Shown one piece after another: positions 6,328 through 36,900 of a DNA stretch of 64,000 bases. The first letter of the stretch is position 1. Each line of letters opens with the position of its first letter. The DNA is from Rhizaria sp. SCN 62-66 (taxonomy: Eukaryota): contig MEDY01000009.1 in the NCBI GenBank assembly GCA_001724265.1, positions 1 to 64,000 of the forward strand, read 5' to 3'. A model generated the notes under the pieces. The model was not told the DNA's origin and made no database searches. It was given only the letters and a program-made list of their open reading frames with translations. The translations under genes and the position numbers were made by a program.

Positions 6328-8712
6328 ATGTTCTCCCGCGCTCGCAGCCGCGCCACGCGGTTGCTGTCGACCCCTGGTCCGCTGACCTCACGCCTGCACA
6401 CTACACTCACAAACCCTAACGCGGCCGCCGTCTTGCCGCGTATCTCCCGCGCCTTCAGCAACACAGCCGCGACGCAGCAGCCAGTCGCTAAAACGAAGCC
6501 CTTTTACATCACAACACCGATCTTCTACGTCAACGGCGCGCCGCACATCGGACACCTGTACACGGCGCTGCTGGGCGACGCAATGGCGCGCTGGCACCGC
6601 GCGTGCGGCCAGCCGACGCATCTTATGGGTGGCACCGACGAGCACGGCGGCAAGGTCGCCGAGGCGGCCGAGAAGGCGGGAGCGGCGTCGGTGCAGGCCT
6701 TCTGCGACACCGTCTCTGCCTCGTTCTCGGACACGTGGCCCGTGTTCGACGTCCGCATGGCGCACTACGCGCGGACAACGGATGCGGCGCACAAGGCGCA
6801 GGTGCAGCGCTTCTGGCGCGTGTTGGCCGACCGCGGGTTTATCTACAAGGGCGCGCACGAAGGCTGGTACTGCCGTAGCGACGAGACGTTCTACCCCGAG
6901 AACCAGGTCGTCACCGCCGACGACGGCCGCAAGCTGTCGCCGACGAACCACCCCGTAGAGTGGGTGTCGGAGCCCAACTATAAGTTCCGCCTCTCGGCCT
7001 TCGAGGCGCCGCTGCGCTCGTGGCTGGTCGCGAACCCGTCCGTGGTTCAGCCCGCCGCGCGGTACAACGAGGTGATGGCCTTCCTCGACACCGGGCTGGA
7101 GGACATCTCGGTCTCGCGGCTCGCCAGCAAGGTTGCCTGGGGCGTGCCCGTGCCCGGCGACGAGGAGCACACAGTCTACGTGTGGCTCGATGCGCTATCG
7201 GTCTACCTTTCGTCCGCGTAGCACTTGGACGCGCTGAGTGCCGCAGAACCCGCGAACAGCGCGAACAGCGATGTGTTCACCGACGTCGCAGCGATTGACG
7301 CGATGGCCGCTGCTGATGCCAACGCTGCGCTGTCAAAGAGCGTTATGGAGGCTGTCAACGCAAGCCTGCGCGCCAACAGCGTCACTGCCGCCGCCGCCGT
7401 TGTCATCGACGACGGTGCGAATGCTTCGAATGAAGCTGCGCCGGCGACGGCGACGGCGACGTGGCCCGCTGACATCCAGGTGGTGGGCAAAGACATCATC
7501 AAGTTCCATGCCATCTACTGGCCGGCATTCCTGCTCGCAGCGGGGCTGCCGCTGCCGCGGCGCATCGTCGCGCACTCCCACTGGACCAACGGCGGCGTCA
7601 AAATGTCCAAGTCGCTGGGCAACGTGCTCTCGCCCGCCGACATCGCGCACGACTTCCATGGCGACACCGACGCGGTTCGCTACGGGCTGCTGCGTCACGG
7701 CCCGCTGCGCACCGACGCGTCGTACGACCTGGCGGCGCTGCATGGCGACGTGGACGCGGATCTGGCCGACGCGCTGGGCAATCTCGCCCTGCGTGCCGTG
7801 GCCCCCGCGCTGCTGCCCGGCGGCGCGCTGCCCGACCCGCTCGCGCGCCATCGGCCCTACGCACCCGCCGACACGGCCACGACGGACGCGGTACCGCTGC
7901 CGGTGCCCGCGCCGCTGGACTTGTTACTCTTCGCGGCCCACCCGCAGCAGCACGCGCACGGACACGGCCACGGACACGGTCACAGTGGCCACAGCGACGC
8001 TGCGGCTGCGGCTGCTGCTGCTGAGTCTGCAGCTGTGGCTGCCGCTGCTGCTGAGGCGGAGGTTGGCACGAGCGTGCAGTACGACGCGCTGCCCGCGTCC
8101 GTGCTCGCGTCCTCTGCGTGGTTCACGCCAGAGACGGGTCTGGCGGCCGTGGGGTGCGATGCCGCGACGGTGCGCCTGATCGGCGAGATCAACACGCTCG
8201 TCGCGGGCGTCGCGCACGAGCTGGACCGCGGCAACACCGAGGGCGCGCTCCTGCGCATCGCGGCCGTGACCCGCGGCTGCAACGTGCTCATCTCGGACTG
8301 GAAGCCGTGGGAGCTCAAGGCGCGGCCCGAGGCGCGCGCGCAACTCGACTGGTATCTTTACTGCGCGATTGAGACCGTGCGTGTTGCCGCGCTGTGTCTA
8401 CAGCCCTTCACGCCCGCCATCGCGGCGCGCCTGCTCACCGGACTGGGCGTCAAGCCCGAGCACCGCAACCCCGTGCGTTTCGGCCGCTTCGGCTACCGGC
8501 CCGACGCCGCGCCCGCCTCGGTCAAGCTGGCGTTCGCCGAGAAGCCGTTCGAGAAGCTCGCCGCGCGCAAACGGGAGGGCGAGCTGTCGCCCGCGGAGGT
8601 CAAGGCGGCGCAGCACGCCGCCAAGAAGGCGCGCAAGGAGGAGGAGAAGAAGGAGAAGCAGGACAAGAAGGACGCGGGCGCCCAGCAGCAGCAAGGCGAG
8701 ATGAAGAATTAA
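6328..8712 (+). CDS. MARS2: Mitochondrial/bacterial-type methionyl-tRNA synthetase, ~794 aa, with an in-frame TAG at 7219-7221
   Basis: Arg/Ser-rich transit-peptide-like N-terminus. FYITTPIFYVNGAPHIGH, GTDEHG, WGVPVP and YVWLDAL lie before the TAG. GKDIIKFHAIYWPAFL, KMSKSLGN and the anticodon-binding region (KPWEL) follow it in the same frame. Ends in TAA. Confidence 0.93.
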
Positions 8713-14401: not shown

Positions 14402-14479
<78 letters not shown>

Positions 14480-14940: not shown

Positions 14941-15581
14941 CACACTGCGCGGTACAGGTGAAGTGTCGTAGTAGTAATTAGTCGACAGAGCTTGTTAAGG
15001 TCGCTGCACAAGCGCATGGGGAAGTAGAATAAGAGCGTTGTGAGAGGAGGGTGGGGCTGACAGAGAAGGGGGGGCGCGCGTGCCCAAGCGCGTGTCTGAG
15101 TACAGGGACTCACAGCGCCGTTTGCAGAAAGAGATATTTTGTGTCATAACGTGTTTGCAACCAAAGTAGTATATTTCAAAAGTGTCGCTCAAATGTGCAT
15201 GTGTGTGACTTAAACCAGACACCCAAAAGATGAAATCTCTGGTCGGACTCCTTCGTCATGGTGGTTCTCAAAAATTCCGGGGCGAGGTCGAACCGTTACC
15301 ACCAAACATTACAAGCTCAATGATGTTCGCTCCTTCAGAGAGCGGCAACAAACGTGTCGTTCTAATATGTTATGTAGACATGACGCATTTATTCGGTCAT
15401 TGACTTGCATTTGCTGCTGACGGACGTCTCCCGCAGCACTACACCTAGAAAGCACTTCCTGTTTCGTTTCCTTAACAGCTCCCCCTCTTTCTTTATCAAC
15501 GCCATTTATGTGGCTGTAACTACCACTCATACGCATATTGTACAACCTCGCGTCATATTTGCTATTTTCGCTACATTGTAG

Positions 15582-17386
15582 ATGGAGTCTGACGGCACCA
15601 GCCAGCTGGCTCTCCGCGCACAGCTTGCACCCGACTTCCAGCAGACTCAACCGCGCGGCCTAGCCAAGTTCGTCTCCGACCCGGCGCCGCACATCCCCGT
15701 GGCGGGCAACAAGTTCTACGCCGACGGCGAAAGCGTTGCCCAGGCCACCTCGACGCAGCCGCGCGACGATTTCTCGCAGATGCCTCTCGATGAGGCCCGT
15801 TGGCGCGCGTCGTTCCAGCGCCAGCCCGGCGTGCAGATGGCCGCCCCGGGCTTCGTCGGCGCGCCGTTGCCTGCCGGCGACTACCGCCACGGTATCCGCA
15901 CGCATATGGGCAGCGACAAAGTCGGCGACGCGCTTAGCACTGCGTACACGTCGTCCCTGGGCGAGTACATCCATCAGCAGAACGAGGCCGTGTACGCGTC
16001 GTCGCGCTTCGAGCCGCTGGGCACCCACTACACGCGCGGCCACAAGCTCCCCGAGGGCTACTACAACGATCCCGCGTACCGCTTCGGCGTTAAGACCTCG
16101 TCCAGCGAGTCCGCCAAGACGGTTATGTACGCGCCACAGCCGCGCGCGGCGTCTTCCCGCGACGGGCCCGTCCCCCAGGGCACCGGCGTGGCCGCCGGGC
16201 TCGACGCCGAGGCCGCTAAGCTCGACCCGCAGTACGTCAGCGAGCGCGAGATCGCGCGCCAGACCACACGCCAGTACGTCTGGCCCGCCGGCTTGGACCC
16301 CACGCAGCACCGCTTCGGCCACGCCGCGCAGCATGCCGACCTGACGGCGAGCCACGGAGTGACCCCGTGCCTTAAGTTCGGCACGCCGGCGGCGCAGGAG
16401 CAGACGCGCATCGGCTCGATCCGGCCGCAGATGGTCGCTAACGTGTGGGGCAACGAGGTCGGCCGCCGGCGCCCGCTCTCGGATGCCATCGCCAAGCTGG
16501 GGCCTGACTTTGTGTTCGGCTCCCGCGGCGCGGCTGTGCAGGTGACCGCCAAGGACAGCATCTACGGCGGCTACACTGCGGATGAGCAGCGACCCGACCG
16601 CGACCTGGGCGCGTCAGTGCGCAAGAGCCAGCCGCTGTACAACGAGCCGCACTCGCTGACGCAGACCGTAGGCGGCGTCACCGTCGCCATGCCCTCTAAC
16701 CAGGTACGTAAGGAAGACTGAGTTAAAAATGATTAGATATATCGTTCTAAAGTGTTGAACTGCACATTACTTTATGCAGATGCGTATCATATTTACCTGA
16801 GATATGGTTCCAAGTCTTTTTGTTTTTGTCCATCTCATTACTAACATTGTTTTCTATTGCATGCTTTCTCTTTTGCTTTCTTCTATCTTAGGTCGCGTTT
16901 GGCGCGCCGACGATCCGGACGGATCGTTCCGAGCCCGTCAAGCGCTCTGTGGCGGACGACCGCAACTACGGCAACTAGCCCACTGCGGCGGATCTGCTCA
17001 TGCCTTCGGCCTACCTGCCCATGGGCGTCTCGCACAGCGACTTCGCGCGGCCGCGCCCCGCGTCGCAGGTGCGCGCGCTCATTAAAGCCGCCGCGCTGTT
17101 CCCCGCGGTTGTCAACAACGACGGCGCGTGGGCCGCGCTTACGGCACAGGTGGCGCCGCACTTCGCGCAGCCGGCGGGCGCGGTGGAGCCCGTCTTCTCG
17201 GTCGACGCCGCGCGCCAGGTCGCCTCGGCCATGACCAACCCCGCGCGTACGGCCCGCGTCTCGCCGGAGCAGGTGCTGCAGGTGCAGCGGCAGCCGCCCG
17301 CGCCCGAGACGGTGCCGCACAACGTGCTCAAGGAGCTCCCGCAGGAGGACAAGGTCCGCATCATTGCCTCGCGCTACCGCCGCTGA
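15582..17386 (+). CDS. EFHB: EFHB/CFAP21-like axonemal protein; exons 15582-16703 and 16892-17386; in-frame TAG at 16976-16978; ~538 aa
   Basis: Exon 1 has EAVYASSRFEPLG...LPEG...FGVKT...SAK. Exon 2 reads VAFGAPTIRTDRSEPVKRSVADDRNYGN*PTAADLLMPSAYLPMGVSHSDFARPR, matching the EFHB C-terminal motif FGxPTIRxD...NYG-[DE]-E...LLxP...DF. Ends in TGA. Confidence 0.8.
16704..16891 (+). other. Spliceosomal intron (188 nt, phase 0)
   Basis: Donor CAG|GTACGT, AT-rich body, TACTAAC branch-like site at 16839-16845, pyrimidine tract and TAG acceptor. Splicing joins in frame to the conserved motif. Confidence 0.88.
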
Positions 17387-17809
17387 ACAAACCAACGACA
17401 AGCAACTGGAAAAAAACGCCGAAGTCTCAATAGACGATTGAGGACAAGTACATGAATTGTTGTGTGCTATTTTTGTGATATGTGTTGTTCTATAGCTGAT
17501 ATTGAGAAACACACAATGTCTCGAGATAGCAATCGGGCCATGTTGAGATTAAGACCAGCTAAAGCTTGTGTTGCGCTGTCACTCCCCCACTTGCTAATTC
17601 TCATCATGCAAACAAAATAATGAATACAAAGCTCTACTAAACGATCACAAAATTAAATCTTTTGTATTTGTAATATATACACCTCAATCAAAACCCGTCA
17701 TCCCGTTTACTCTATCTATATTATGATAAATCGTTTGTTTGTTTGTTGTTTAGTGTGCGGTCAGCGTGCGAACTGAACTACACTGCTGCATATGGTGTTG
17801 GTTCGGCAC

Positions 17810-18904
17810 TTACATGAAGATGCCCTTCTCGAGCGAGTGCTCCTTAAAGCCCTTGTGGGGGCAGACGACGGCCTCGTAGAGCATGACCTCGCTGGCGACC
17901 TCGACGTCCTCGCCCAGGAAGCACTTCTCGACGTGGGCCCACTTCGCGATCTTGCTTTCCCAGCCCACGATCGAGGTCTTGACGACAGAGTGCGCGTCCA
18001 CGGTCGTGCCAGCCATGAGCGTGCAGTTGTTAAGCCGCACGCCGTCGCCGATGACGCAGCCGGGGCCGATGACGACGTCGGGGCCGATAGAACAGCCCGC
18101 GCCGACCTTGGCAGAGGGGTCGATGACGACGTTGCCTGTGATGCCGGCACCACGCGCCAGTTGCTCAGGCTTGCGGCGCGCGAGCATGGTGAGGTGCAAG
18201 TGCGTGCCGATGAGGAAGTCCTTGGGCTGGCCGACGTCCATCCAGTAGCCCGGCAGGATCATCGAGTGGACCTGTTCGTCGACGACCATGGCGGGGAAGA
18301 TCTGGCGCTCGATCGACATGGCCACGGGCTCGGTCGGGATGCGCGACAGCACGCTCTTGTTGAGCAGGTAGATGCCCGCGTTGATCTTGTTCGAGGGCAG
18401 GTTTGTGGCGCCGGGCGCGGGCTTCTCGAGGAACTGGATGATCTTGCCATCGGCGTTGGAGACGACGAGGCCGTACTTAGAGGGGTCCTCGACGGGCGTG
18501 ACGAGGATCGTGCCCTCCTTGCCGTGGTCCTTGTGATAGTTGAGCATCTCCACCAGCGGGAACTCGCAGGCGACGTCGGAGTTGAGCATGAAGAAGGGCG
18601 CGTCGTCCTCGAGCAGCTTGGCGCGGCACAGGCCGAGCGGACCGGCGGTGCCGAGGGGCGTCTCCTCGATCGAGAACACGACCTTGATCTTGTACTTGGT
18701 CTCGACGTTCTTCATGAAGTCCATCATAAGCGTGGGCATGTGGCCGACGGCAAGGATGATCTCCGTCACGCCCGCCTCGACCAGTGCCGCGATCTGGTGC
18801 TCGACGATGGCGACGTTGACGAAGGGCACGCAGGGCTTGGGCTGCGAGAAGGTGAAGGGGCGCAGACGCGTGCCGAAGCCGCCGACGAGGATAACCGCCT
18901 TCAT
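17810..18904 (-). CDS. GMPPB: Mannose-1-phosphate guanylyltransferase (GDP-mannose pyrophosphorylase beta), 364 aa
   Basis: MKAVILVGGFGTRLRPFTFSQPKP, ETPLGTAGPL, DPSKYG, FLEKP, KINAGIYLLN, SIERQIFP, GYWMDVGQPKDF and a hexapeptide-repeat C-terminus. True start is ATG 18904. Ends in TAA. Confidence 0.95.
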   Translation of the reverse strand: MKAVILVGGFGTRLRPFTFSQPKPCVPFVNVAIVEHQIAALVEAGVTEIILAVGHMPTLMMDFMKNVETKYKIKVVFSIEETPLGTAGPLGLCRAKLLEDDAPFFMLNSDVACEFPLVEMLNYHKDHGKEGTILVTPVEDPSKYGLVVSNADGKIIQFLEKPAPGATNLPSNKINAGIYLLNKSVLSRIPTEPVAMSIERQIFPAMVVDEQVHSMILPGYWMDVGQPKDFLIGTHLHLTMLARRKPEQLARGAGITGNVVIDPSAKVGAGCSIGPDVVIGPGCVIGDGVRLNNCTLMAGTTVDAHSVVKTSIVGWESKIAKWAHVEKCFLGEDVEVASEVMLYEAVVCPHKGFKEHSLEKGIFM

Positions 18905-19572
18905 GGAGAGTAAGAGAGGGTCTGTGGTAGACAAAAAAGTAGCGTGGTGATGAAGACATATGCATTCAGTGAGCGAAAAGCGCCTTGGGCGGGGTTGTAA
19001 CGGAGGACGATGATGCTGACAGTGCCGGATGGTGTGACAGCGAAAGAAGGGCTTCAGATCAGGATATAACGGCAGCTGCAAGCAAAATTATTAAGTTGCT
19101 GAAAACAACAAAAATGTTTTCAACCTGAGAAGAAATAACTGCTCTCATCAGCGGAACTCACAGTCTACAGCAAACACGGATAGATCGAGTTTCGTCGGAT
19201 GACCGATAGACCAGCAAAATGCCTTTTTTCGGTCTCGTCGGTTGTGAGCGTGGAAGAGAAAGAAGAGGTCAAAGAAGAACACTCTTGTGGTCAGGTTTTG
19301 AGTGGTCCAGATCTCATCTGTTTCACGTTGTTTTCTTATCTCGTCCAGTGTCCATATTTATTTCGATGTGTACTGCCTAAATCTTTTAGTCAGATCCCCT
19401 GAAAAGATGCACATGTCCTTGTATCTCCAGGCTGCTTGTGATGAGAGATAGGTCGTTTGAGACCCAGAGCTGTTGGCATCACCAACCTCACTTGCACTCA
19501 CTTTCTCACACCGACTCATCATTTGACCACGATTTATCACTTTGCTCCACCTCCTCATAGACAAGGGTACCC

Positions 19573-20502: not shown

Positions 20503-21004
20503 GAAAGCACGTGCGCCCTCAGAGCAGAGGCTGCAAACCACAGCGAGGAGCTGTGTTGCACGCCAACGCATGTGAACGTAGATTACAAAGATAAAGAATA
20601 GATTGGGTTCGTGTGAACCTGTGAATACTAGACCAACAGAAAAAGAACAGAAATAAGCTACAAAATACACAGTCAAACTTAATATCGACACTTGCATCCA
20701 TACATGGTATCTATTGTTCGGCTTTATGCCATTTCAGACACCCGCGTGACTGAGACACGTTGCAGAAGATCGGACCAAAAGCAGACTACGAGGCACATTT
20801 TAGAAACCAAGATTTCGGGTCGTGGTCATCGTCAAATAAGTTTCGGCTGCTTTGCACGGAACGCAACTTATTGTTTTCAAACGGTTATTTCTTTTATTTT
20901 GTATAAACCCCTGTTTCATAGCGATTATCTCTCCGGAAGAATATCGCTCGTTGACTGCATAATCAAGCAGGCTGTCACTTGCTCCAGCCGCGCTCTCTTA
21001 CCCC

Positions 21005-24000
21005 ATGCAGCTATTCCGCGGCATCACTAAGGCACTTGCGGGCGTCGCCGATGCGGCTACAGGTCCCTCGAACAAGTACTCCGCCGTGCACGTCGCCCCG
21101 ACCCCGCTGCAGCACTTGCCCTTCGTGGTCGACCCCCTGCACCAGCCCTCGGCGGCAATATCGTCGACAGGCTCTCCCAGCACAGCAACCGTGACCGATG
21201 CGTCGGACCCTGGGGCAGGCAAAATCCGCTGGGTGTGTGACGACGAGGTGGCGAACTGCCAGACGTGTGCGGCTCCGTTCACGGCCTTTTTCTCGCGCCG
21301 CCACCACTGCCGCGCGTGTGGCCAGGTCGTGTGCAGCGCCTGCTCCCGCGGTCGCCGCGCGCTGCCGCACCTAACCCGCTCCCGCCGACGCGAGCGCGTG
21401 TGTATTGAGTGTCAATGCGAGATTGACTGCGTGCGCCGCGGCGTGGACATCGACGCCATTTTCCACTTCATCGACCGCTACGTGGCAGAGATGCGCGGGA
21501 TCTCATCCGCCATCGCGACGCCGCCCACGGCCGCGGACGCGGCGCGCGAGTCGGCCTGGCTGCGCGCTTTCTTCGCGACGCTGCACGCGAGCTTTGCTTC
21601 TGCGGCCGCGCTTTCGGCGCACGCCCCCGACGGCGACCTCATCATCACCGAGTGCGCCGAGCCCTCGCCCTCGCATACAGCCGCCGTCGCCGCAGACGGC
21701 GCCGCGTTCCGGGCGCTCGCCGCGCCGTCGCAGGTCCGCGCCGCAGTCGCGCTTGTTACCTGGGTGCTTGCCGGCGACGACGGGCGCGCGCAGGCCGCCG
21801 CCGCAGCGGCGCAGGCACCAGCGGCCACGGCCAGTGCCAGTGCCAATGCCAGTGCGACTGGTGTCACGTCGCCGTTCACTTCGATCGCACTATCCCAGTC
21901 GGCCAGCAACGTGGCAGCGCAGCCGTCGTCGTCTCCCAACGGCGGCAACGGCGGCTCTGCGCATAGTCATTTGCTGACAGTGCTTGAGGGCCGCGCGCTG
22001 CACCGGCTGCTGTCGTCCATCTCGTCAGTCTACGTCGCCGAAGCCGTGGCCGAGTGCGTGGCCGCCGCGGCGGAGGCTTCGCTCGCTGCAGTGGCCGCGC
22101 TGCCGCCGGCGCCCACGCCCGCGCCGGCTGCCGACGACGGCGAGAGCAAAACCAACGGTGGGGAGCTGGAGAGCGACGTGACCGGACTCGACGACATCAC
22201 CTTCTCCGAAGACACTAATACTACCGACAACGGCGACGCCACGGTGGTCTACTGCACATGCCCCGAGTCTGCCGCGGGCGAGAGCGACTCTATTGGCTCT
22301 GGCCCCGGCTCCGGCTCCGGGGTGGGCTCGTGCCCCGCGTGTCGCGCGCACACCGCGCTGCTGCGGCGTCTGCAGCGCACCATGTCGCGCACCGTCGTCG
22401 CGGCCTCGCACTGCCAGCGAGCGGCGCAGACGCTGCGCGCGGGCACCGCGGGCTTCATCGGGCCCGTCGTGCTCAGCAACGACGTCGGTGCGCTCGCCGC
22501 GCCCGCCGCCAACACCCTGTGGGGAGTGCTGCATCAGGCCCCGCAGACGCGCGCCGAGGCCGCCGCCGCCGTCGCCGCCTCGGCTATGACAACGGCTGCG
22601 CCTGCTACGGATAGCTCGCTGGGTGAGAGCTCAGCAACGTTGCCTTCTGCGAGTGCGGATAACGCCGCTGCCGCGTCTGTCGCGCCGTCGTTCCCGCTGC
22701 AGCGCCTGCTGGTTGTGACGCCGGGCCACAACCCGCTCATCGTGCTCACCGGCTTCGTGCGCCCCGTCGACTTCTGCGGCGTCTATCAGACGCTGCCCCA
22801 TAGTGACGAGGCGGGGGACCCCGGCTGCGACCGCGCCATGCGCCGGCGACTGGCGCTCGTGCTAGGCGCTGAAGCATTCGCCAAGGCCGGCGCAGTGTCA
22901 CACCAGACTGCGCCGCTGATGAGCGCCCTCAAGCCGCTGCTCTCAGCCGCGTTGTGTGGTGCTCAGACCGCGAACGCTGCCGGCGCCAACGCCTACTCAG
23001 CGGGCTCCTCCGCGACGTCGCCCGTGACGGCCTCCGGCAGCAACCTCGCCCCCGCGCAGCAGCAGCAAGAGTCCGTCATGGTCGACGCCGTCGCCGACAT
23101 CGCTAGCGGCAGCACAGCGCTGGCGGCGCTCCCACGCGCGCGCGTGACGCTGGCGAACCGCCACGCGTCGCTGCTGGCCAGTCTGAGCGGCGTGGCGATC
23201 CGGTTCATCACGCCGCAGACCGGGAGCCAGGCCGCGGGTGACGACTCGGCCTCGTCGCGGTCGACCGCAGGCAGCAGCATCGGCAGCATGCTCAGCGGCG
23301 GCGGCGGCAGCGCGGGCGCGCACAAGCACCACGCTGTCGCCGTCCCGCACCGCGGCGACAGCAGCAACAACGGCAGCAGCAGTGCAAACACCACAGTGAC
23401 CTCGTGGACCGCGCCCGCGCTTGCGCTCGCGGTGCCGCCCTCGGCTGCCGCGGCCGCCGCCTCCGCTGCGGCAGCCGCGGGGGCCGAGCACGTGCCCACA
23501 GTGCCGCTGCCGACCTCCGTCTCGCACGCGGTCACCGCGCCCGGTTCGAGCCACCCGGCCACCGCGAGCGCGCTGGACTCGCCCGCGCTGGCACTGGTGT
23601 CGTCGCCCTTCTCGGCCGTGCCCGCCACCGTGGGCTTCGTCCCCAGCTCTGCCGTCCCCGCCGCGGGCTACGGCAGCGCCGGCAGCGGGGGCGACGGCAG
23701 CGGCTCCGTGTCGGTGGCCGTCGACCCTTCGGCCGCGAGCAACAGCAGCGGCAGTGGTCTGGTTGCGCCGACGCCCACCGCGGGCGCCTCGGCCCGGCGT
23801 GCGTTCGGCGGCGGCCGCAGCAGCCTCTCGGCCTCGCGCCACGGCCACGGCAGCGACGGCGCGCGCTTCATGTCCCCGCCGCAGGCCGGGCTGCGCGCGT
23901 TGCAGACGTGTGGGCTGGCCGGCTCCGTCTTCGCTTGCGCGCTCGCCGTGCCCGTCGACGTCGCCGGCGGCGTCAAGAGGCTCGACCCGCCGTCGCCGCT

Positions 24001-27000
24001 GCCGCAGGGGCCGCCCGCCGCGCCGCAGCTCGCGCGCCTGCCCGCCGCGCTGCCCATCAACAGCGTGCGTGTGGCGTCGGCCCCAGCGCCCGCGCCCGCG
24101 CCTGTGTCGACAACGGCGGTCAACAGTGGCTCAGCTGTAGCTGGCAGCGCGGTCGAGAATGGCGCCAGACTGGCGTTGTCGACAACAGTGAGCACGAGTG
24201 CGAGCTCAAGCCAGACGAGCTTTGGAAGCGCCGCCTACGTCGCGGTCAACACCAACAGCGTGACCGTGTGCGGCCGCGCCGTGCCCGTGGCCCCGCCGTC
24301 GCTCGTCTGGGGCCCGCGCAGCAGCGCCACCGCGGCTGCGCCGGTTACTGTCAACGCCCACGCCGGCCCCGTCACGGGCCCCGCGCGTGCGTACTTTACG
24401 TCGGCGCCGACGGTGCTGTTCGATGGATACACCGCGCTGGCGCACCCTACGTGGCTGCCCGCGACGGCGTCGCCCGCAGCCGTGGCGGCGTGGGAGCCCG
24501 CCAACGCGGGGCCCGCGCGCGCGCTCTCGCAGTGGCGCCAGAACGCCACCGTCGCGGAGCGCTATTACGTCGTGCGCAACGGCGGCGCGCTCCCCAGACG
24601 CGGCGTGTCGGCTTCTGCGTCTAACGTTGTGTCGGTGTCGGTATCGGCGTCGGCTAACAGCGCAAAGGTTGCGGACGCGACCACGTTTGGCCTCGCGTCG
24701 CCGCTCGCGGCTGACGAGTCTGCTTCAGACAGCGCGGTCGCAGCATTGCCTGCTGCAGCTTTGAGTGCGGGCGCTATTGTCGCTGCTGGTGACCCTGCAA
24801 CGAAAGCGACCCGTGCAGGCTCAGCCACCGCTGCCGCTCTGCTCTCTGCACCGTTCCCCAACACGCCGTGGTGCAACAGCAACACCGGCACCAGCAGCGT
24901 GTGTTCGGTGGGGCGCGACCTCGTGCTCGCACTCGCTGGCGCGCTGCCTCCGTTGCGCCCGGGCTCCCATGTTCCCTTCGCGCACGTCGACCCCTACCAG
25001 GCTGCAGCCGCCATCGCCGTACATGCCCAGCAACAACAACAGCAGCTGGGCTCCGAGGCGCCGCAAGACCGCGACCGCACGGCCGCCGGCTCCGTGTCGT
25101 TCTACGGCGTTAGCTCCAGCGTCGCCGCTGGTGCCGCCGGCGACAGCGGCGCGCGGCCGCGTGGCGTGTTCGCGTACTCCGGCCCCGTCGCGTCAACCGT
25201 GGGCGCGCCGTACCCGCCGACCGCCGCGGCCGCCGCCGCGCTCGCGCTCGCCGCGCCGACCGCCGCCGACTGCGCGCCCGTGGCCGCCGCGCTCGCCGCG
25301 CGGGGCAACGCCGACGCTCAGGCCACAGCGGGCGTCGCGGCGGCCGGGCTCGCCGCCATGCCGCCCGCGCTCGCGTGGGTCGTACTCGCTGCGGCCATCG
25401 AGAACGCCGGCTCGAACGCTGCTCTTGGCGCGATGGCCGCGAGTGATGACGTGCAGTGTGTTCTCTGGTCCCCCGCGCTCTCGGCGGCCTCGCACTTCGC
25501 TCTGCGCGCGCTTGCCGCCTCGGCGCCCTCGTCTCCCGTTGCCTCAGGCACCGGCACGAACTCCACCGCAACGGCGCTCACGGCCAACGGCGGCGTGTCT
25601 GGGCTCTCGCTGGCGGTCGCCAGCGGCGGCTCCCTGCTTTCGCTGCCTCCGCCGCCGACGCCCGTGACACCCGGCAGCTTCGCGCTGTCCTCGGTCTCCG
25701 CCGCCGCCGGCGGCGGCGCGGGCCTGTCGTCGTCTGCACTCGCGCTGCCGCAGTCCTCCTCGGCGGCCTCGGCGTCCGCGACCGCACTGACGGCGGCGCC
25801 CAGCGCGGCGCTGCGCAGCGGCGTGGAGCACGTTGTGCTCGCGCTCTGCGAGTCGGGTGGCGTGCTCTCCTGGCTCGCGCGCGCCCGTGATCGCTGCGGC
25901 TGCCCCTGCGCCGTTGAGGCGCCCGACGCTGCGCTCTGCGCCTGTTGCGGCGGCGCCGCGGGTGCCGGGCCTTGTCTCTGCGGCTGCACCGGCCACGGCG
26001 AGGACTCCTGGGCCGCGGGGCACGCGGCAGCGGTGTCTGCAGCGGCGCTCGCGCGCAGGGCCGCGCAGGCGCCGACGATGTCCACGGCCAGCGCTGGCTC
26101 TCTCGCTGCCAACGCTCCAGAGCGCTCCACGGGCGCTGCGGTCGCGGCGTGGCAACGCATCTTCCCCATGGCGCAGTACACTGGCGGCAACAACGCGCAC
26201 TCAAACGCGTATCTACTGCCCCCGGCGCCCCAGCAGCAGCTCGGGGCGACTCGCGGCAGCATGCTCGCTGTGAGCAGCAGCAGTGCCGCGGCTGCGGACG
26301 CCGCCGGTGGCGACCCGATGACTCCGCCTCGCAAGGCCGGCCGCAGCGCTGTGCGTACTGCCGCGAACACAGCTTCTGCGGCAAACGCAGCGGACGTGGA
26401 TGCCAACGCCGCCGCCGCTTGGCTGTCCGCGCCGCCGTCGCTGCCGCCCGCGCCGTACCAGAAGACGCTGCTTTCGCTACTGTACACGCACCTGCACGCA
26501 CACACGAGCCGGCTGCGCCGCGCCTGCGCCGCGCTGGCGCTGCTCGCGCGCGACGCCGCCACCACGGTCTCGGCCGCGGACCCCGCACACTGCGCGCTGC
26601 TGCACGCGCTCTGGCGCGGCTCGCTCGCGTGGACCTGCGTCGCGCCGGCGCAGGCCCTCGCCGGCGCCGCGCCCGCGCAGTCGGCCGGTTCCCTAAGTGG
26701 CGCCGTGCTGGCCGCGCGGAGGCTCGAGGCGCTGGCACCTGCGCTGGCCGTGGCGCCCGCGCTGCCGCGCGACGAGCGGTGGAAGCTTGTCGGCTTCCAG
26801 TCGGACACGCCGCTGACGGACTTCCGCGGTATGGGCCTGCTGTCGCTGCGCGCGATGGTCTACATCTGCACGCACCACCCGCGCCTCGCCGTTGCGCTCG
26901 CCGCGCTGCAGCAGCCTCCGCGCGCGCCCACGACGGTGTCCGCCGACGCCGAATCTGCGCCGGCAGACGACGCGGTGAGCGTGGCTGGCCTAGTCGCCGC

Positions 27001-28222
27001 CGTCGCGCAGCAGAGAGCGCTTGCCGCGCCCATGACCAGTGAGGCCGGTGACGACGTGGATGAAACTACCGGTGCTGACGGGTCTAGCAGCGTCGGCTCC
27101 CCTGCCTCCGCACCCGCCGCGAGCAGCAAGACTGGCTTTAACGGCGCGCGCGAGTATCCTTACGCGACGGCCGTTATCAACGTCGTCGCCGCGCTCGCCC
27201 GCATGCTCCCGCTGCCGCGCTTCACGCCCTCAGCCGGCTCCGGCGCCGCGGCCGCCGCCGACACGCTTGGCGTCCGCCGCTCGCGCGCGCCCGGCCGTGG
27301 CGGTAGCATGTGCGGGGGCGGCGCGGGCGAGTACACCGAGATCATGCTCGAGTCGCTGATGCCCGGCTCGGCGCCGTGGCTCGGCGTGGCTGACCCCGCC
27401 CACTGCGAGCCCGCGCTGCCGGAGCCCTTCGCGCCCACCGCCGCACAGGCCGCCTCCTAGGCCGCCGCGGCCGGTGGCGGCGGCGGCGGGCTGTTCGCGG
27501 AGTCGGCCGACGCGGACGCCGTGCCGGTCGGCGCGGCCGCCGTGCGCGCGACGGCCCACGCCGTGGCCGACGGCGGCGCCGCCACAGACGCCGTGCTTGA
27601 CGCCGCCTTCGCGCACTCGCCGCCGGACCTGGTGCAGTACCCGCTGTTCCGCCTCATGACGCTGCCGCGCGCGGCCCCGCGGCGCGCCCCCGCGCCGGGC
27701 ACCACGCGGCTTGTGCCGCACGTCGCGCTCTCGCCCTCGATGGTCTTCTTCGAGGTCGTCACGCAGACCGTCGCTCTCACCGACGTCATCTTCGCGCGCG
27801 TCGGCGCGGGCTACTTCACTTTCCCGCAGGTGCTCGCGGCCGCCGTCACGCGCTGCAGGCTCGCGCTTGCGCGCGCGCCCGTGACGCTCGAGGCTTTCGC
27901 CGAGATCCTGTGGGCGGACGAGGCGCCCTGGCTGCGCGCCGCCGCCGAGGTCGCAGTTTGCCCGCTGCAGAACGCGCTGTGCGTGGACTATGGCGCTGCT
28001 GCTGGCAGTGGTGGCGCCGGCAGTGGCGCGGGGGCGCCGCAGGCGGCCGTGGACGCGGTTGGCGCGTTGGCCAAGGCGCTAGCGCTGGCGGCGCCGCCCG
28101 CGGCGGAGGACTTTGCGTTCTTCCTCGAGACGGACGGGCTGGTGCAAGCGGTGGCGCCCCGGCCCGCAGTGCCGGCTTTCGTGGTGCCCACGGTTTTTGA
28201 TCTCGGCGACAGGCTGGTGTGA
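21005..28222 (+). CDS. FYVE zinc finger + ELMO/CED-12 domain protein, ~2405 aa, with an in-frame TAG at 27458-27460
   Basis: [18 protein letters not shown]....[49 protein letters not shown] and [11 protein letters not shown] before the TAG, then [30 protein letters not shown] after it in the same frame. Ends in TGA 28220-28222. Confidence 0.85.
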
Positions 28223-29045
28223 GGATTAGAGAGTGGGGGAGTTCTGCATCGGTCACAACTGCTACTGTGACGATGATGTAATCGCTCAGAAAAATCTTGA
28301 TGACGCACAGTAAATAGTACCCAGACATTTGAACGCGCAATGTAAAGAATAATCATTCGTCAATACATCCCCAAAACATTATCTTACTTACAGTGAAGAA
28401 GCTCCCTTCAACGACGAGGTGCTGAGCCTCTTCGTTGAGCATTGCGCGTCTGGAACGTGTTGCCTTTGATAGCAAAACACGATGTCAATTTTGAATGACT
28501 TGATATTCCATAGAGAACGTGTCATCAATCGTGATCTTAGTATCGATACCGAGGGTCGGACTTTAACTCGTCCAATCCATGATATTGTCGTGTTGAGAGC
28601 TTGCCAGCGTGTCTACTAGTTTGCCCTATTGGTGTGATTCCCCGCAAGCTGATCATCTGCGCGCCTCGAGTTTCACTGACGGGTGATGCAAACACAGATA
28701 CTATAGAAAAGCTGAAAATGCAACCTATACACTCCTGTCTGGACGTAAGACGTTATGGTATTCGCCTTTTATCTCTGCTGTAAAGAATTGTAGTCGTGTT
28801 ATGAAGTTGTATTTTAATCATCACAGCGCGCGTGTTTTGAATACGATTAGCATGCGCTCTCTGTTCTCTACCACTAACAATAACGTGTTTTTCTTCATTA
28901 TACAACGTGTGTACATGTTAATATATACTCGAAACTCCAATAAATCTTATTAATCACCACAGACACTCAAACTCAACCCCGTCCTGAGTCGCCAGCCGAA
29001 GCACACACGCTCGCACACGCTTGCACACTCACGCTCGCGCCGTGC

Positions 29046-30282
<1,237 letters not shown>

Positions 30283-30445
30283 TCATCCGTCTGTGAAATA
30301 ACTAGCCACGTATCGTAATTTTTCGTGTGCAAATATGTGCTGATTTTTAACTGCATGTCGACCACACTCACCTGTGGCTCTCTACACTTTTTCTTAAATC
30401 GTTTCTCCCCCTCACTACATCCACTACTCGCTGGCAACACAGTAG

Positions 30446-33033
30446 ATGGACGTTCGCGATCGATTCCACGTCCACCCGGACCTTCCGCTCCTCCTCAAGG
30501 ATTGGACGCGTGAGGTACTCCGTTACCAGCCCGAGAACGTTGTCGAGTTCTCTCGTGACTACTTCACTGCGTACGTTTCACTCTCTGCTGCCTCGAGCCC
30601 AACGTCTCTTGTTCAACTCCCTTGATTGACTGTTTATGCACCTTCAAAAGCAGTTCAGTCACCCACTGTCTATCGCCGCTATGTATCTTACGTGTCTCAA
30701 TGTTTGCGTTTTCTGCCTTCTTATTTTTGCTCCTGCACAGCCTCGCCAGCGACGGCATGGTGGGTACCGCGCAGCTCTCGCTGCTCCAGGGCCCGCGCGC
30801 CCACCTGTCGTCCTACAACAAGATGGAGCACGCCAACCGCGTTCGCAACGGGCCCCATGACGTTGCCTCCGCTGCCGCCGGCCCCCGCGGTGGTTTTTCC
30901 CACGGCGCGCACGGTGCCGCGTCCGCCTCCTCTGCGTCTCACGGCGGCGGCATCAACAACGCCACCAGTTACAGCACCAGTGGCAGCGGCAGCGCCTTCG
31001 CTGGCAACGCCACCTCCGCCGCCGCCAACGGCGACGCGTCCCCCCTTCCTGGTCACGGCGCCGACGCCTCCGCCGCGGGCGCCGGTGCGCGCGCGCCCAC
31101 GCTCGCGATCGCGGCGCCCGCGGTGTGGAGCGCAGCGTCGATTGCGCACATCGCGGGGCAGGCGCCGGCCGAGTTCGCCGCGCGCGCCGCGCTCGTGCTC
31201 GACTCTGAGGTCCCGCTGCTCACCACGCCCACGGTCGACGCGCTCGCAGTCTACGCCGCGCTCTCCGCCATCCTCGACGACTCGGACGCTGCCGGCGGTG
31301 CCAACGGCGGGAACGGGGTGCCCAGTGCGCAGGCGCTGTCGGCGGCGTCGATCGCGGCTCAGTGGCTGCGGCAGAGCGGCGCGCCGGCCGGGCTGCTTGA
31401 CGCGCGGCTGGCGGCCGAAGCCATCGCGGCCGTCACGCTTGCGGCGGGACTCTCAGCGGCCGATTTCCGGTCCGGGCTCGCCCGCGCGGAGGCGCGCGTG
31501 GCCGCGATGGGCGGCGCAGCGGGCGTCACTGCGCGCGGCGACGCGCTGCGGCCGCTCTTTGCCGCCTACGACGACGCTGGGCGCGGGCGCATTGCGCGGT
31601 ATGAGATGCTGCTGCTTTTGGAGCCCGTGCGCGCAATGCTGCCCGCCACCGCGCTCGCCGCGCTCGAGGACTACGATGACAGCGCGAACAGCTCCGACCA
31701 CGACAACGATGGCGGCAGCGACGGCGGCGTGAGCGCGCGTGTGGGCACTGCGCACGCGACTGCGCAGGAGTTCGTGCGCACGCTCTTCGAGCTCACCAGC
31801 GGGCTCGACCAGCGCGCGTTCGACCAAGGTACATGAAGCATAAATCATGCTCATATCGCTATTGACAGTAACGTGTGACTTTTGATGAACTGAATGCACT
31901 TGTATTTTATTTTATTTTTCATAACATGCTTATTTGTGCTTTGTAACTTTTTTTCTTGTTGTCTTTCTTCTTTCGCAGTCGTCGAGATGATCTCCGCGCA
32001 CATCCCGATCGCGCGCGCGTCCCTGGCGCCCCGCGCGGCGAAGCTCACCCGTCTGTACCTGCAGCTGGACTCTTCCCTGGCGGGCGCGCTGCCCGCCTCG
32101 GACCTCGCAGCTGTGATCCGTCTGCTTGCCGCGTCGGCCGCCGCGAAGCCCGCGGCGCTTAAAGCCGCGCTGCTGGCCTCTGACACGCTGGGCGCGGGCG
32201 CAGGCGCGGGCAGCGCGAGCAGTGCGGCCGTGCTGGGCGAGAGCGACGTGAGCGCGACGCGCGCGGCGCTGGCCCGCGCGGCGGACGACTTCGAGGCCGG
32301 CGTCGCGGCCGCGCTGCACCAGCTCGAGGCGCGCGGCGGGCGGCGCGTCGACCTCACGACGTTCGTGGTGACGGCGCTGCGCACGAGCGTGGGGTGCGCT
32401 GACGACGTCTTCGCACTGGGCGTCATGCGCGCGGGCCGCATGGCTGAGGAGCGCCAGGCGGCGCAGGCGCTCGTGCACGAGACAGAGGAAGCCATCGAGC
32501 GCAAGCGGGCCGAGGCCAACGAGCGCGCGGGGGCGGCGGCCGGCGTGGGCGCTGGTGCGGGCGTGGGTGCGAGCTACGAGAGCTACCAGGACGGCGACGA
32601 CGATGACGGCGACGGCGACGGTGACCAGTACCAGGACCAAGAGCAGGAGCAGGAGCAGGAGCAAGAGCCTGAGCAAGATGAGAGTGGGGTTGCGTTTGGC
32701 GTGAATCGTGATAATGACGACGACGAGAACGGCGAGCAGAACCAGGAGCAGGAGCCCGAGGACCAGCAGGAGCAGGAGCAGGAGCAGGAACTGGAGCAGG
32801 AGGCGCCTTATGCCGACTTCGCTCAGTCTGGCGACAACGGTGACGGCAACGAGGACGCGGACGCAGAGCAGCAGCAGAACCCTGACGACGAACAGTGGAG
32901 TGCGCCGGCCGAGGGTGACGCGTTTGGCGGCGATGCGGGCTTGGAGGACGCCGCGGGACTTGTTGCCGGAGACGAGAACGAGCACGAGCCTGCCGCCGCT
33001 GTGGGCGACGATGACGAGGAAGAGGAGCAGTGA
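30446..33033 (+). CDS. RIIa dimerisation/docking domain + degenerate EF-hand repeats + acidic tail; exons 30446-30570, 30741-31828 and 31979-33033; ~755 aa; radial-spoke (RSP7-like) architecture
   Basis: Exon 1 (absent from the ORF track) encodes MDVRDRFHVHPDLPLLLKDWTREVLRYQPENVVEFSRDYF, an RIIa D/D signature. EF-hand-like LFAAYDDAGRGRIARYEM and LYLQLDSSLAGALPASDL. QE/D-rich tail. Ends in TGA. Confidence 0.78.
30571..30740 (+). other. Spliceosomal intron (170 nt, phase 2)
   Basis: GTACGT...TGCACAG, T-rich, in-frame join. Confidence 0.82.
31829..31978 (+). other. Spliceosomal intron (150 nt, phase 1)
   Basis: AAG|GTACAT, very AT-rich body, long pyrimidine tract, CGCAG acceptor, in-frame join. 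Confidence 0.85.
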
Positions 33034-33946
33034 ACCGTGTGAGCTCGCGCATGCTTGGAATCGGTTCGAAAGATTGACTTGCTCTCGTGTTATGGCCCGA
33101 GCCAGAGGCCACATAGATACGTACAATACATATTGATGAATTTCACAACTGGAACTTCTGCGACTACGCTAAGTTCACACGTTGATCGTGAAATATCTCT
33201 GAAATTTTCACTTTTCGATGTAAAATTCTATAAAAATGCAAAACATTTGTTTTATTAATTAAATTGTTCATATTCTGTTCTGAAATGACTCATTCTCGGA
33301 AAATATGTATCTTCCCAAAATGTTCTTCATTTTTTGGGCGATCGCAGAAATCTAAGGTCAAGACACTTTTTTCCTGTCAAGCTTCAAACATTCATTCAAA
33401 TGCACGGGGAAAAAGGGGAGGAACAAATTGTAAATACATTCTAGCAATAGTTTGACGATTGGGGAGCACACCAGACCTGTTGTTTATAGAGTTGCAAACC
33501 TTGTTGTGACTTAAAAACTCACATTCAGCTTATGAGGCTCAGCGAATCAAGCACGGTTGATCATGGCGACAGTAAAGAAGCGGGACAAAGAGGAATACCG
33601 TGAATCGACTGACATTTTTTTTATTTCAGAGTGTCAATTCTTATAATCTTGTTTGACTTTGCTAGCTCACAGTCACTCGCCCTGGACCAGGCAGCTGCCC
33701 CCTTGGTGACTTGAAGAAGATTACTTTTGGCACGACTTTCGAGATGGATAACCCACATATGAATATGCAAGAAACTGTACTGTATTTAAAAAAGTTGCAT
33801 CCTAGAAGTTCATTTGTACCGTCTCATGAGGTCTATGTTGCATTGAGATATCTCGCGTTTTCGTTTCGAGACCCATGTCTCTCATTGTCTGACATTCATT
33901 GTGTCTCCTCACAATTCTTTCTGGCACAACATTCGTTCAGCGGCAC

Positions 33947-36900
33947 ATGTTCACATGTGCAGCTACAACTTTTGCGCGCGTTGTGGGGACGCTTTCTCTC
34001 TGTATTGCTATGATCCAGGTACTAGTACTACCGATGCTGAACGCAATGGTGATTCAGTACCTCCCAACTTCACCTCGCAACTATTTCCGTCTCTCAATCG
34101 CAGAGGTTGACCGCTGGCAGCTTCCAACTTCGTTGCTCACTGTGTTAGTTACGCCGTATTCCAGCGGGAGATCATTCGAATTTGACACGGACCGCAGCTG
34201 CGTGCTGCAAAACTCTGACGCACAGGTCGTACACTCATCACCCAATTCGATCACATTCGGCTTTCCGGGGAAGGATCCGTTTCAAATTCTTCCCACGGGG
34301 AAGGCCAGCTTTGAGCTTCGTTGCAGCTTTGCCGGACGACAATTCGAGGGGCTAAATGACGGTGTTGTAACTGCGCAAATCACAGCACTACCCTCACTGT
34401 AGGAAACCGTCTCGTTCAGCACAGTGCGAGTCACGTCAAACATCATCACATTGCCAGCCTACACCAAGACTGGACTCTACGGCGTAATGCCAGCGTGGAC
34501 AAGCTTGAGTTCGTTCTCAATTGATTTACGCATGGCGTTAAACTTCCAAAGCTCCACGCCACTTCCGAATGACTTCATAGAACTTAGCTTTCCCAGTCTA
34601 CTGAATGCAGAGTTGCTCACGTCGTGTTGGTATGCACCAGAAATGGTGCGTACACCGCGCTACCGTACCAAGTTCTTACGCGTACCGGGCGAAAATAAGA
34701 TTCGTCTCTACTTAAACCCAATGGACTCCGATCTTGAGGCGCTTGTTCGTCCGCCGTTGCGACCAGACTCGGACATCAACGGCCACCGCAGCATTATCTG
34801 CTCTGGCTTCACGGGTGGACCCGAACAGAACACAGGCTCAGTAGACTATTACCCAATTGTGAATTATTACGGAGGCAAAAATAATGTAAACCTTGCAGGT
34901 TATTACCTCCCGACACGCTTGTATTCGCTACCATGGTTCCCTCCTACGGTCTCCAGTGAAGTCAGGTCTGCCCCACTCGGCGCAGTGCACACTGTTGTTT
35001 TCACATTTATCTGCGCACAAGCCATGCTGCAACCTATAATGCGCGTTCAAACGCCGCATATCGAGCACACCGGGCTTGCATTCCTTGGATCACCAGTGTG
35101 TACTGCGGCGTTAGACCAAAGTGATGCTCCAATATCAAACATCATTACTTCTTCATATGCATTCACCGTTGACTTGCACACTGTTGCCATTGCAGGCAAC
35201 CCAACAGCGTCGCTCGTTGTTACGTGCAAGTTTCGCTTTACTGGCGCCTTTGGCTTCACACCAAAGACACTGTCATTTGACTTAAACGCGCGCCTATCCC
35301 CACAGAACGGCGGCGACAACGATGTTGTGATATCGGTCCCACTAAGCGTTACATCGCGAGCTGAGATCGGCGCAACGCCTATTGCAGCAACTCTTTCTCC
35401 TGCTCCCCTATTTGATGTGCCTGTGCAGCTCACGGTTACTGCTTCAATCAAGCGCACGTACCTTATCGACGCGCTGCCCGTGCTCGCGCTATCTGTCTCA
35501 CCTTCACGGCTGATGCCATTGAATGCAATTTGCACGCTTAAGGTGAACGACATTGTGCTTATTACATCCGAAGAGTTGAAGCTTGACGCATATGCATTGT
35601 TTGGCATGAAGCCTTCGCTGATAGGACAGGTTCCCACAGCAGGCGAGTACGTTTCCCTTGAGATACAGTGCAGTGCCGTGACGATTCCGTCAACAGTGAA
35701 CGAACACGTAATGCCCGTGGTCACCCTGCGCGTGCTGCCAGCAATAACGTTCTCCTCTGGAGTTGATTTGCAGGCTTACGAAGTCGAACGCACACTAGCT
35801 GTTATCCCATACCCGACAGTTTCAGCCTCTCCATCTCTGCTGTCAACACGAGTTTTCGCAGACAAGAATGGCGACTTTATTTTTAACGTTGAGATATCAA
35901 TTCCAGCGCTTACGACGGATTTGTACATTGTTGACATTGTTACAATTACAGTCGTGCCACAAAGCACGCGCGACTACGGCACATTTAAACGCGTAGACGT
36001 TCAAAACCCCGTGCGTATGTGCGTAGTCATGAGCACAGCAACAGGCGAGAGGTTTCGCACAGCAACACCTTTAGGGTCATCTTATGTGCTCAGCGAGCCT
36101 GTTCCAACTGCAATCACGTTTGCACTTGCCGACGACATCCCCAAAGGAACTGCGCTCACTGTGCTGTGCCCTCAGTCGCTTGAGAAAACTCGCGACAACA
36201 CGGCTGATGTCACGCGCGGCACGTTGCGCACAAACATTGTGACGTTTGCCGTGACGCGGTCAACAACGAGCATGCTAATATACACATCGTTTAAGGCAGC
36301 AGAGCCCCAACCAGCAAGCAATTTTGCGTTGATCAACACAATCCAGTTCTTGCATGATCAAGTTGGATATAGCAATGTGTTCAATGCTCTTTATCACAAC
36401 CCGTCTCAGATTAACGCACAACTTGCACCGTTGCAGCCGCTAAGCGTGCGAGTGTCTGCAACCGTTTCGTGGTTCGACCAATATAATTCAGTGCCGGTCT
36501 GCAGTCTGTTGATTAACTCTCACGAAATTGTATCCGTCAGTGTCTCGATTTTGTCTGACAAATCACTGCAAATTTTTGGAATTAACAATGCAGCGCCGCA
36601 TGTAGAAGAGGTTTTACAATACCAATGGTACGACATTTACACTGGATGCGCCATCCGCGTTCGATGCTCTGGCATTGTACTTCTTACAGCTCCAAGTCAG
36701 ATTCCGCAGTTCTCACTTGATACATTACTCCCTGCCGTAAGCACCGGGGTGTTCGAGAAAATAACTGTTGTGCGCAGCATTACCACGGCACCCCGCATGT
36801 ATATGAACATTGCCTCGCTGGCTTTACGTAAGGTAACTCTCTCAACAGTATTGCCGTTTCCAGCACTGTTTGGGTTGCACCTAGGCTCGCTTGGCATTGA

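Follow-up and report, generated by a model that had tools for sequence, protein, structure and literature searches.

In nuclear genetic codes, a reassignment of UAA almost always goes together with one of UAG (PMC5304391). Among the uncoupled cases described in that source, UAG encodes Gln in Iotanema spirale and Leu in the sainouroid rhizarian exLh, and both carry in-frame UAG in conserved genes and use only UAA and UGA as bona fide terminators (PMC5304391). For phyllopharyngean ciliates, UAG has been reported as Leu or as Gln, with UAA as the preferred stop; suppressor tRNA genes are described for two genomes, and some of these codes were discovered in metagenome-derived genomes (PMC11687900). 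The combination of TAG as Gln with TAA and TGA as stops is catalogued as NCBI table 15 ("genetic code 15"; PMC9523058). In Blastocrithidia nonstop, UAR is given as Glu and UGA as Trp (PMC12153298), and in the ciliate PL0344 UAA and UAG encode different amino acids (PMC10553269).

The DNA compared with these systems here (the window, a whole stretch of 64 kb) belongs to a flagellated protist of wastewater reactors that is uncultured and GC-rich. A first-pass annotation had proposed that UAG alone is read as sense, pointing to four genes in which the frame continues behind an in-frame TAG, to the lack of any need for internal TAA or TGA and to the absence of gene models ending in TAG; all of these observations were reproduced. 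The TAG triplets at 7219-7221, 16976-16978, 27458-27460 and 34400-34402 (forward strand) were read directly from the letters, and the ORFs that hold them and continue past them span 6313-8712, 16892-17344, 20963-28222 and 33893-47065 on the same strand. Across 15 coding segments with 17,265 codons, the in-frame counts are four TAG, zero TAA and zero TGA, whereas the other frames of the same segments contain 139 TAG, 222 TAA and 539 TGA. The 14 gene ends in the window comprise eight TAA, six TGA and no TAG; four of them were checked against homologues (MetRS, GMPPB and proteasome beta with TAA, FYVE-ELMO with TGA). Codon identity is thus associated with position (four internal and no terminal TAG, against no internal and 14 terminal TAA or TGA; Fisher's exact test, p = 3.3e-4), and the probability of finding no TAG among 14 ends is 0.044 at an assumed TAG share of 20% and 0.007 at 30%. 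These figures describe four codons and 14 gene ends in one 64-kb window, so that rare or dual use of TAG is possible. UAA, which still terminates eight of the 14 genes, is uncoupled from UAG, and the overall pattern matches the one used for Iotanema and exLh (PMC5304391), which supports the proposed reassignment of UAG only.

Two neighbouring genes illustrate regular termination. The GMPPB gene (17810-19087, reverse strand; Pfam match) ends in a bona fide TAA at 17810-17812, its gene call P0123 aligning from end to end with the GMPPB of a chytrid (364 versus 360 aa). The last exon of the proteasome beta subunit gene (19824-20502, forward strand) also ends in TAA, and its alignment to a homologue runs to residue 217 of 225; the preceding intron (19629-19823, forward strand, GT..AG) is removed in a spliced joint from 19628 to 19824 seen at depth 36 in run X5.

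Each of the four TAGs lies within coding sequence. In three genes, those for MetRS, EFHB and FYVE-ELMO, this follows from homology, the TAG being aligned within conserved coding sequence, and in a giant ORF from the openness of the frame and codon usage. The first TAG (7219-7221) is the only one in the frame of a mitochondrial-type methionyl-tRNA synthetase (MetRS; 6328-8712, forward strand), which ends in TAA at 8710-8712. It occupies residue 303, within ...VYVWLDALSVYLSSA-X-HLD..., downstream of the HIGH motif and upstream of KMSKS, and is crossed by the best stretch (residues 65-305) of the Pfam match to PF09334 (E 7.8e-86). Aligned in full with P0002, a colinear one-piece relative of 688 aa, the protein shows 63% identity (73% for the best stretch found by BLASTP), and the C-termini of its relatives finish in the same region as the TAA of the window. 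In the gapless TAG column the relatives have R (P0002), L (P0003), K (P0004 and P0005) or, in the others, G; the position is therefore variable and does not indicate the residue. Of MetRS, only the part downstream of the TAG is represented in P0058, a public gene call of 495 aa. A 21-nt GT...AG stretch at 7200-7220, which ends at the TAG, was considered as a micro-intron and rejected because it encodes conserved residues, VYLSSA, identical in P0002.

The second TAG (16976-16978) lies in an EFHB/CFAP21-like gene on the forward strand. Exon 1 (15588-16703) opens with the ATG at 15588 and is followed by a GTACGT donor; a 188-nt intron (16704-16891, GTACGT...TAG), placed by the change of frame and the splice signals, precedes exon 2 (16892-17344), which holds the TAG and a C-terminal EF-hand domain (PF25325, residues 34-67) and matches FAP21 (6u42, E 2.5e-12), CFAP21A and EFHB chains. 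The 3' end of the gene is unsure; an unspliced continuation of the last exon would end in the TGA at 17384. RNA contigs from X5 and X7 span 16408-16705 of exon 1; the X5 contig maps to 16408-16701 plus 94 extra letters, with its difference at 16976 located eight letters from the contig end, a geometry that fits a 16703|16892 junction, deduced from these lengths and not read directly at the joint. The TAG falls on the Glu of an NYG[DN]E motif, and the gapless column has Glu in all five solved homologues among the alignments listed.

The third TAG (27458-27460) belongs to an Ala-rich FYVE-ELMO gene of about 2,405 codons (21005-28222, forward strand; PF01363 FYVE, PF04727 ELMO) that ends in TGA. 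Here the ELMO domain is interrupted by a variable Ala/Gly linker that contains the TAG, and the C-terminal half of the domain lies downstream of it. A colinear alignment with the relative P0245 covers query residues 34 to 639 of 640, passing the TAG and reaching the extreme C-terminus, and other ELMO proteins match the part downstream of it (for example P0287 at 477-546). GC content by codon position is 0.80/0.58/0.90 after the TAG and 0.74/0.67/0.85 before it. The TAG aligns to a G/A-rich low-complexity stretch of P0245, which makes the residue uninformative. RNA contig matches at 27458 are mixed with GC-rich repeat matches.

The fourth TAG (34400-34402) is codon 152 of a giant orphan ORF of 4,372 codons (33947-47065, forward strand) that ends in TGA and has a hydrophobic N-terminus and, at its C-terminus, a Cys-rich module and a TM helix. 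With an off-frame stop density of 5.4% per codon in this ORF, the run of 169 open codons that leads up to the TAG has a chance probability of about 1e-4. The segment before the TAG scores +0.20 bits per codon in frame, against at most -0.20 in any of the five alternative frames, and in-frame chunks of the ORF itself score down to 0.14. A search for homologues bridging the TAG returned only the ORF's own gene call, and the Atlas gave no usable match; a repeat search of the 151 aa before the TAG against the rest of the ORF yielded E >= 1.7, no better than wrong-frame controls. Viral contigs scanned with the giant protein gave no match, and neither X5 nor X7 provides RNA cover at 34400.

To compare runs, we used a 20-kb stretch containing the sites at 16976, 27458 and 34400; the site at 7219 lies outside it. 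X3, which stems from another study and was separately assembled, shows no other letters on eight listed pieces, including 15587-17760 and 27394-31318; it is also covered at 34234 and 34472, and no difference is reported at 34400. The TAGs are not assembly errors: the separate assembly reproduces those at 16976 and 27458 and does not differ at 34400. A sister strain differs at 24 places in the 20 kb, with GAG at 16976 and a retained TAG at 34400; the X4 piece 32932-35399 has seven differences, none of them at 34400. At 16976, X4, X5 and X7 have G throughout their depth versus T in X3, a change of TAG to GAG at codon position 1. Spliced mRNA contigs (X5, X7) cover this codon and all derive from the GAG strain, which is why UAG-bearing transcripts were not seen.

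The earlier description of the organism also held: the window encodes the flagellar proteins EFHB and Cfap43 and a mitochondrial-type MetRS, and its introns measure 188-195 nt, one shown by a spliced RNA contig and one inferred from contig geometry. The best named matches are oomycetes and fungi for MetRS (about 50%) and chytrids and plants for GMPPB (about 55%). A quick, unfinished MetRS tree groups the window only with unnamed sequences, its one tie to a named taxon being a weak one (68) to a rhizarian on a long branch. Scans with MetRS recovered just two distant loci among the metagenome contigs (40-43% identity) and only bacterial MAGs among the genome contigs (37-43%); the genome contigs gave no match to GMPPB.

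Taken together, UAG is likely a sense codon in this organism, with Glu as its most likely meaning and UAA and UGA remaining stops. Of the four sites, only that at 16976 has a column informative on the residue, the other three being variable or without homologue. The Glu meaning is probable because the codon at 16976 is GAG in the sister strain and the homologues carry Glu in that column; under UAG=Glu the strain change is synonymous. Judged from these sequences, UAG thus probably means Glu, unlike the Gln and Leu of the examples cited in the first-pass annotation. Pyrrolysine and selenocysteine were considered as meanings of UAG and set aside; pyrrolysine is not known to occur in eukaryotes. 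By analogy with PMC5304391, the codon would be read by a Glu-charged tRNA whose anticodon, CUA, differs by a single change from that of tRNA-Glu(CUC), and an eRF1 with poor recognition of UAG would accompany this tRNA. Changes of GAG to TAG would then be tolerated as silent.

The window resembles Iotanema and exLh in its UAG-only pattern, in coming from a flagellate or amoeboflagellate protist outside the ciliates and in the predicted tRNA(CUA) and eRF1 change (PMC5304391), and differs from them in the probable Glu and the GC-rich genome. Its four UAGs in 15 genes are far below the 384 in 71 genes of exLh and the 204 in 126 of Iotanema, densities that we estimated from the values given there (PMC5304391). 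Phyllopharyngeans likewise have UAG alone reassigned (PMC11687900), but they are ciliates, whereas the window has 60-75% GC, 190-nt introns, multi-kb genes carried on a contig at least 100 kb long, and another inferred residue. The stop set is identical to that of NCBI table 15, the residue being Gln there versus the suggested Glu here. To our knowledge, no NCBI table combines TAG=Glu with TAA and TGA as stops. In PL0344, UAG reportedly encodes Glu and UAA Lys. PL0344 and Blastocrithidia share with the window UAG as glutamate, for which GAG-to-UAG and anticodon CUC-to-CUA are each one step; in both, however, UAA is reassigned too, whereas in the window it ends eight of 14 genes. Since the UAG-only nuclear codes described in the two reports mean Leu or Gln (PMC5304391, PMC11687900), Glu would be a new variant.

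Other explanations have to be weighed against a reassigned UAG. UAG might formally still be a stop with leaky termination, read by near-cognate tRNAs or under a weak eRF1, in an ambiguous or transitional code with no dedicated tRNA. The very low in-frame density (four in 17,265 codons) would suit this, as would the C that follows TAG at two of the four sites (7222 and 16979), C after a stop codon being a readthrough-prone context, and the result that ARAGORN and Rfam found no tRNA gene, hence no tRNA(CUA), and no other RNA gene within the 64-kb window. But G follows the TAGs at 27458 and 34400, so that a common readthrough motif is not visible, none of the 14 genes ends in TAG, and an essential synthetase domain and an ORF of 4,220 codons would hang on inefficient readthrough; we consider leaky termination unlikely. 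Less probable still is a standard code in which nonsense alleles or pseudogenes, built up within a clonal reactor strain, account for the TAGs. The GAG at 16976 in a close strain fits it, since a null allele is another reading of the polymorphism, and EFHB might be dispensable. The codon usage here makes TAG the commonest nonsense outcome (60-64% of random nonsense mutations), so that "all four are TAG" by itself has p 0.13-0.17, and selection between the strains appears moderate, with purification not strong, at six synonymous versus six non-synonymous differences, too few for a selection test. Such decay, however, would take four nonsense mutations among 15 genes without a frameshift, TAA or TGA, would leave intact, conserved and codon-biased frames of 496, 253 and 4,220 codons behind the TAGs, and would break MetRS between HIGH and KMSKS; the TAG at 34400 is common to both strains, and the absence of TAG terminators stays unexplained.

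The ribosome might also never meet UAG, if base editing or removal of tiny introns corrected the mRNA. This is compatible with transcripts over 16976 that all come from the GAG strain and none from the TAG strain, and with the GT...AG stretch that ends at the MetRS TAG, yet the 21 nt encode the VYLSSA shared with P0002, introns here have 188-195 nt, and the alignments of MetRS and EFHB, gapless at the TAG, call for exactly one residue in that column. Known RNA edits of UAG would yield CAG (Gln) or UGG (Trp) rather than a codon for the Glu that EFHB should have, and correction of the mRNA is very improbable. That the window is a metagenome contig is the one point in favour of assembly or sequencing errors at the four positions, to which we assign next to no probability: X3 shows no differences over the pieces with 16976 and 27458 and has cover around 34400, X4 retains the TAG at 34400, and errors would not hit TAG four times and spare all other codon classes.

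Returning to the reassignment of UAG, both the rarity of the codon (0.23 in-frame TAG per 1000 codons, four in about 17,300, versus 553 GAG) and the GAG/TAG difference between strains fit a code with tolerated GAG-to-TAG changes. We tentatively suggest, as a possibility to be taken seriously, that an undescribed nuclear code with UAG=Glu and UAA and UGA as stops has been caught early in an uncultured, deep-branching, GC-rich lineage of wastewater flagellates. In the public gene calls for this organism, the proteins are broken up at the TAGs (P0058, P0243/P0244, P0122), so wastewater eukaryotic bins with this lineage would be mis-annotated under the standard code. Each uncoupled case shows an eRF1 and a tRNA pool able to separate UAA from UAG, which is relevant to genetic-code engineering (PMC5304391), and Glu with both other stops retained would, if true, extend the list of code variants by a new one. 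A codon at such low density, with a GAG/TAG polymorphism at one site between co-existing strains, would then offer a rare view of early codon capture, and its spread after capture could be followed at the population level.

The pattern proposed in the first-pass annotation, in which UAG alone has been reassigned to sense while UAA and UGA are still stops, is supported by the counts over the window. In-frame TAGs are present at 7219 (mitochondrial-type MetRS), 16976 (EFHB/CFAP21-like flagellar protein), 27458 (FYVE-ELMO protein) and 34400 (an orphan ORF of 4,372 codons), and the long ORF goes on past each of them; across 17,265 modelled codons, these four TAGs are accompanied by no in-frame TAA or TGA. 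TAG ends none of 14 genes, which close with eight TAA and six TGA codons (the end of EFHB is unsure), four of the 14 ends having been verified by comparison with homologues. Fisher's test of codon versus position gives p = 3.3e-4, and the probability of finding no TAG among 14 ends is 0.044 to 0.007 for an assumed TAG share of 20–30%.

The class-I synthetase domain of MetRS (Pfam PF09334, E = 7.8e-86) extends across the TAG, which falls between the HIGH motif upstream and the KMSKS motif downstream. The TAG column aligns without gaps to the relative P0002, a protein of 688 aa in one piece (identity 63% across the full alignment and 73% over the best BLASTP stretch), and is variable among relatives, being R, L, K, K or G. 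In EFHB, the TAG is found 28 codons past the start of exon 2, and all five printed alignments (Chlamydomonas FAP21, two Tetrahymena CFAP21A chains, the 8snb chain and an EFHB chain of 8i7r) place it opposite the Glu of NYG[DN]E. At 27458, Pfam recognises the ELMO domain only over its initial two thirds, upstream of the TAG. When 1.84 billion representatives were scanned in full with HMMER, the matches included the relative P0245 (632 aa), colinear with residues 34 to 639 of the 640-residue query, TAG included, and further ELMO proteins aligning to the region downstream of the TAG. The public gene calls of the contig break at the TAGs: P0058 holds only the C-terminal half of MetRS (495 aa), the FYVE-ELMO protein is called in two pieces (P0243/P0244, 2,151 and 233 aa), and the start of the giant protein P0122 is placed downstream of the TAG.

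Among 5.8 billion clustered proteins, the giant ORF (33947–47065, + strand) is matched by its own public gene call alone, and searches for Pfam domains, Atlas hits and viral-contig matches returned nothing. No stop interrupts the 169 codons upstream of its TAG, and the wrong frames of this gene meet one about every 19 codons. Scored against the ORF's own codon table, the segment of 151 codons that begins at the first ATG reaches +0.20 bits per codon; in-frame chunks of the ORF can be as low as 0.14, and none of the other five frames exceeds -0.20. Searching for repeats did not lend support to the part preceding the TAG. Because its C-terminal end consists of a Cys-rich module and a TM helix, the predicted product resembles a surface protein that is unusual in composition or foreign in origin. 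The G+C of the ORF is 0.49 and its GC3 0.48, versus a GC3 of 0.80–0.90 in every neighbouring gene.

Contigs of four runs (X3, X4, X5 and X7) were mapped onto window positions 15400–35399. X3, a DNA run from another study, does not differ from the window in any of the eight listed pieces, among them those over 16976 and 27458, nor at 34400, which has depth on either side; this separate run thus reproduces the TAGs at 16976, 27458 and 34400, and assembly error is therefore excluded at these three sites. X4, X5 and X7 represent a sister strain with 24 listed single-letter differences and two small indels over 20 kb. In all three, position 16976 is G, giving the codon GAG (Glu), while the X4 piece covering 32932–35399 has seven differences that leave TAG 34400 unaffected. 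X5 includes spliced contigs; at 16976, every RNA contig belongs to the GAG strain, and a UAG-bearing transcript is therefore not among them. Besides TAG/GAG, the coding differences between the strains are six synonymous and six non-synonymous, too few to argue selection. The two strains, the X3 strain being identical to the window, are found together across wastewater studies.

UAG is probably a sense codon in this organism. Its main rival, leaky termination at UAG without a dedicated tRNA, appears unlikely, and we give still less credence to a standard code in which the four TAGs are nonsense mutations. As a point against a sense codon, 60–64% of random nonsense mutations under the codon usage of the window would give TAG, so four out of four, taken alone, has a p of just 0.13–0.17. 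The standard code would require four nonsense hits among 15 genes without any frameshift, TAA or TGA, an essential MetRS split between its two signature motifs, intact, conserved and codon-biased frames of 496, 253 and 4,220 codons downstream of TAGs, one TAG common to two strains and TAG at no gene end. Reading UAG as sense explains all of these points. Given a sense codon, glutamate would be the best guess and somewhat favoured over the alternatives, because the sole informative alignment column is an invariant Glu at which the sister strain has GAG, a change that would be silent if UAG encodes Glu; glutamine or another residue is possible.

In the ciliate PL0344, UAG reportedly encodes Glu, with UAA reassigned as well. 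UAG is likewise Glu alongside a reassigned UAA in Blastocrithidia (PMC12153298). Nuclear codes that reassign UAG only are described for Iotanema (UAG=Gln) and the rhizarian exLh (UAG=Leu; both PMC5304391) and for several phyllopharyngean ciliates (Leu or Gln; PMC11687900). Among the nuclear codes listed in the literature searches, none combines UAG=Glu with both UAA and UGA as stops.

The window derives from a metagenome contig, and the runs containing it, DNA runs X1–X3 among them, are metagenomes of bioreactors, wastewater and activated sludge from several studies. Its genes are eukaryotic, large, mostly intron-poor and located on both strands; besides the four TAG-containing genes, they encode an RGS-domain protein, GMPPB, a proteasome beta subunit, adenylate kinase (ADK, - strand), a DUF229 protein, a Frizzled-type receptor, an MA3-domain protein and Cfap43. 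G+C varies between 49 and 75% along the 64 kb, and TAA is about as common a terminator as TGA despite genes with 60–75% G+C and a GC3 of ~0.85. The FYVE-ELMO gene (20963–28222, + strand) is enlarged by long Ala/Ser/Gly-rich low-complexity tracts and has up to 75% G+C; the tracts attract contigs of unrelated organisms in mapping and produce many false joints. Introns are 188–195 nt long with GTACG donors (16704–16891, 19629–19823 and, in ADK, near 29420–29900). The proteasome intron 19629–19823 is confirmed by an X5 spliced contig joining 19628 to 19824 (GT..AG), a second X5 contig has a geometry that appears to match the EFHB junction 16703|16892, and introns in ADK are predicted from frame changes.

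The best named matches of the window proteins are ~50–55% identical, and a quick tree of MetRS sequences places the window solely with unnamed sequences (SH-aLRT 100 and 99). The receptor at 55601–59599 (- strand) combines an Fz cysteine-rich domain with a Frizzled/Smoothened 7TM region. Since this architecture is typical of animals and amoebozoans, the receptor may be helpful for placing the flagellate lineage.
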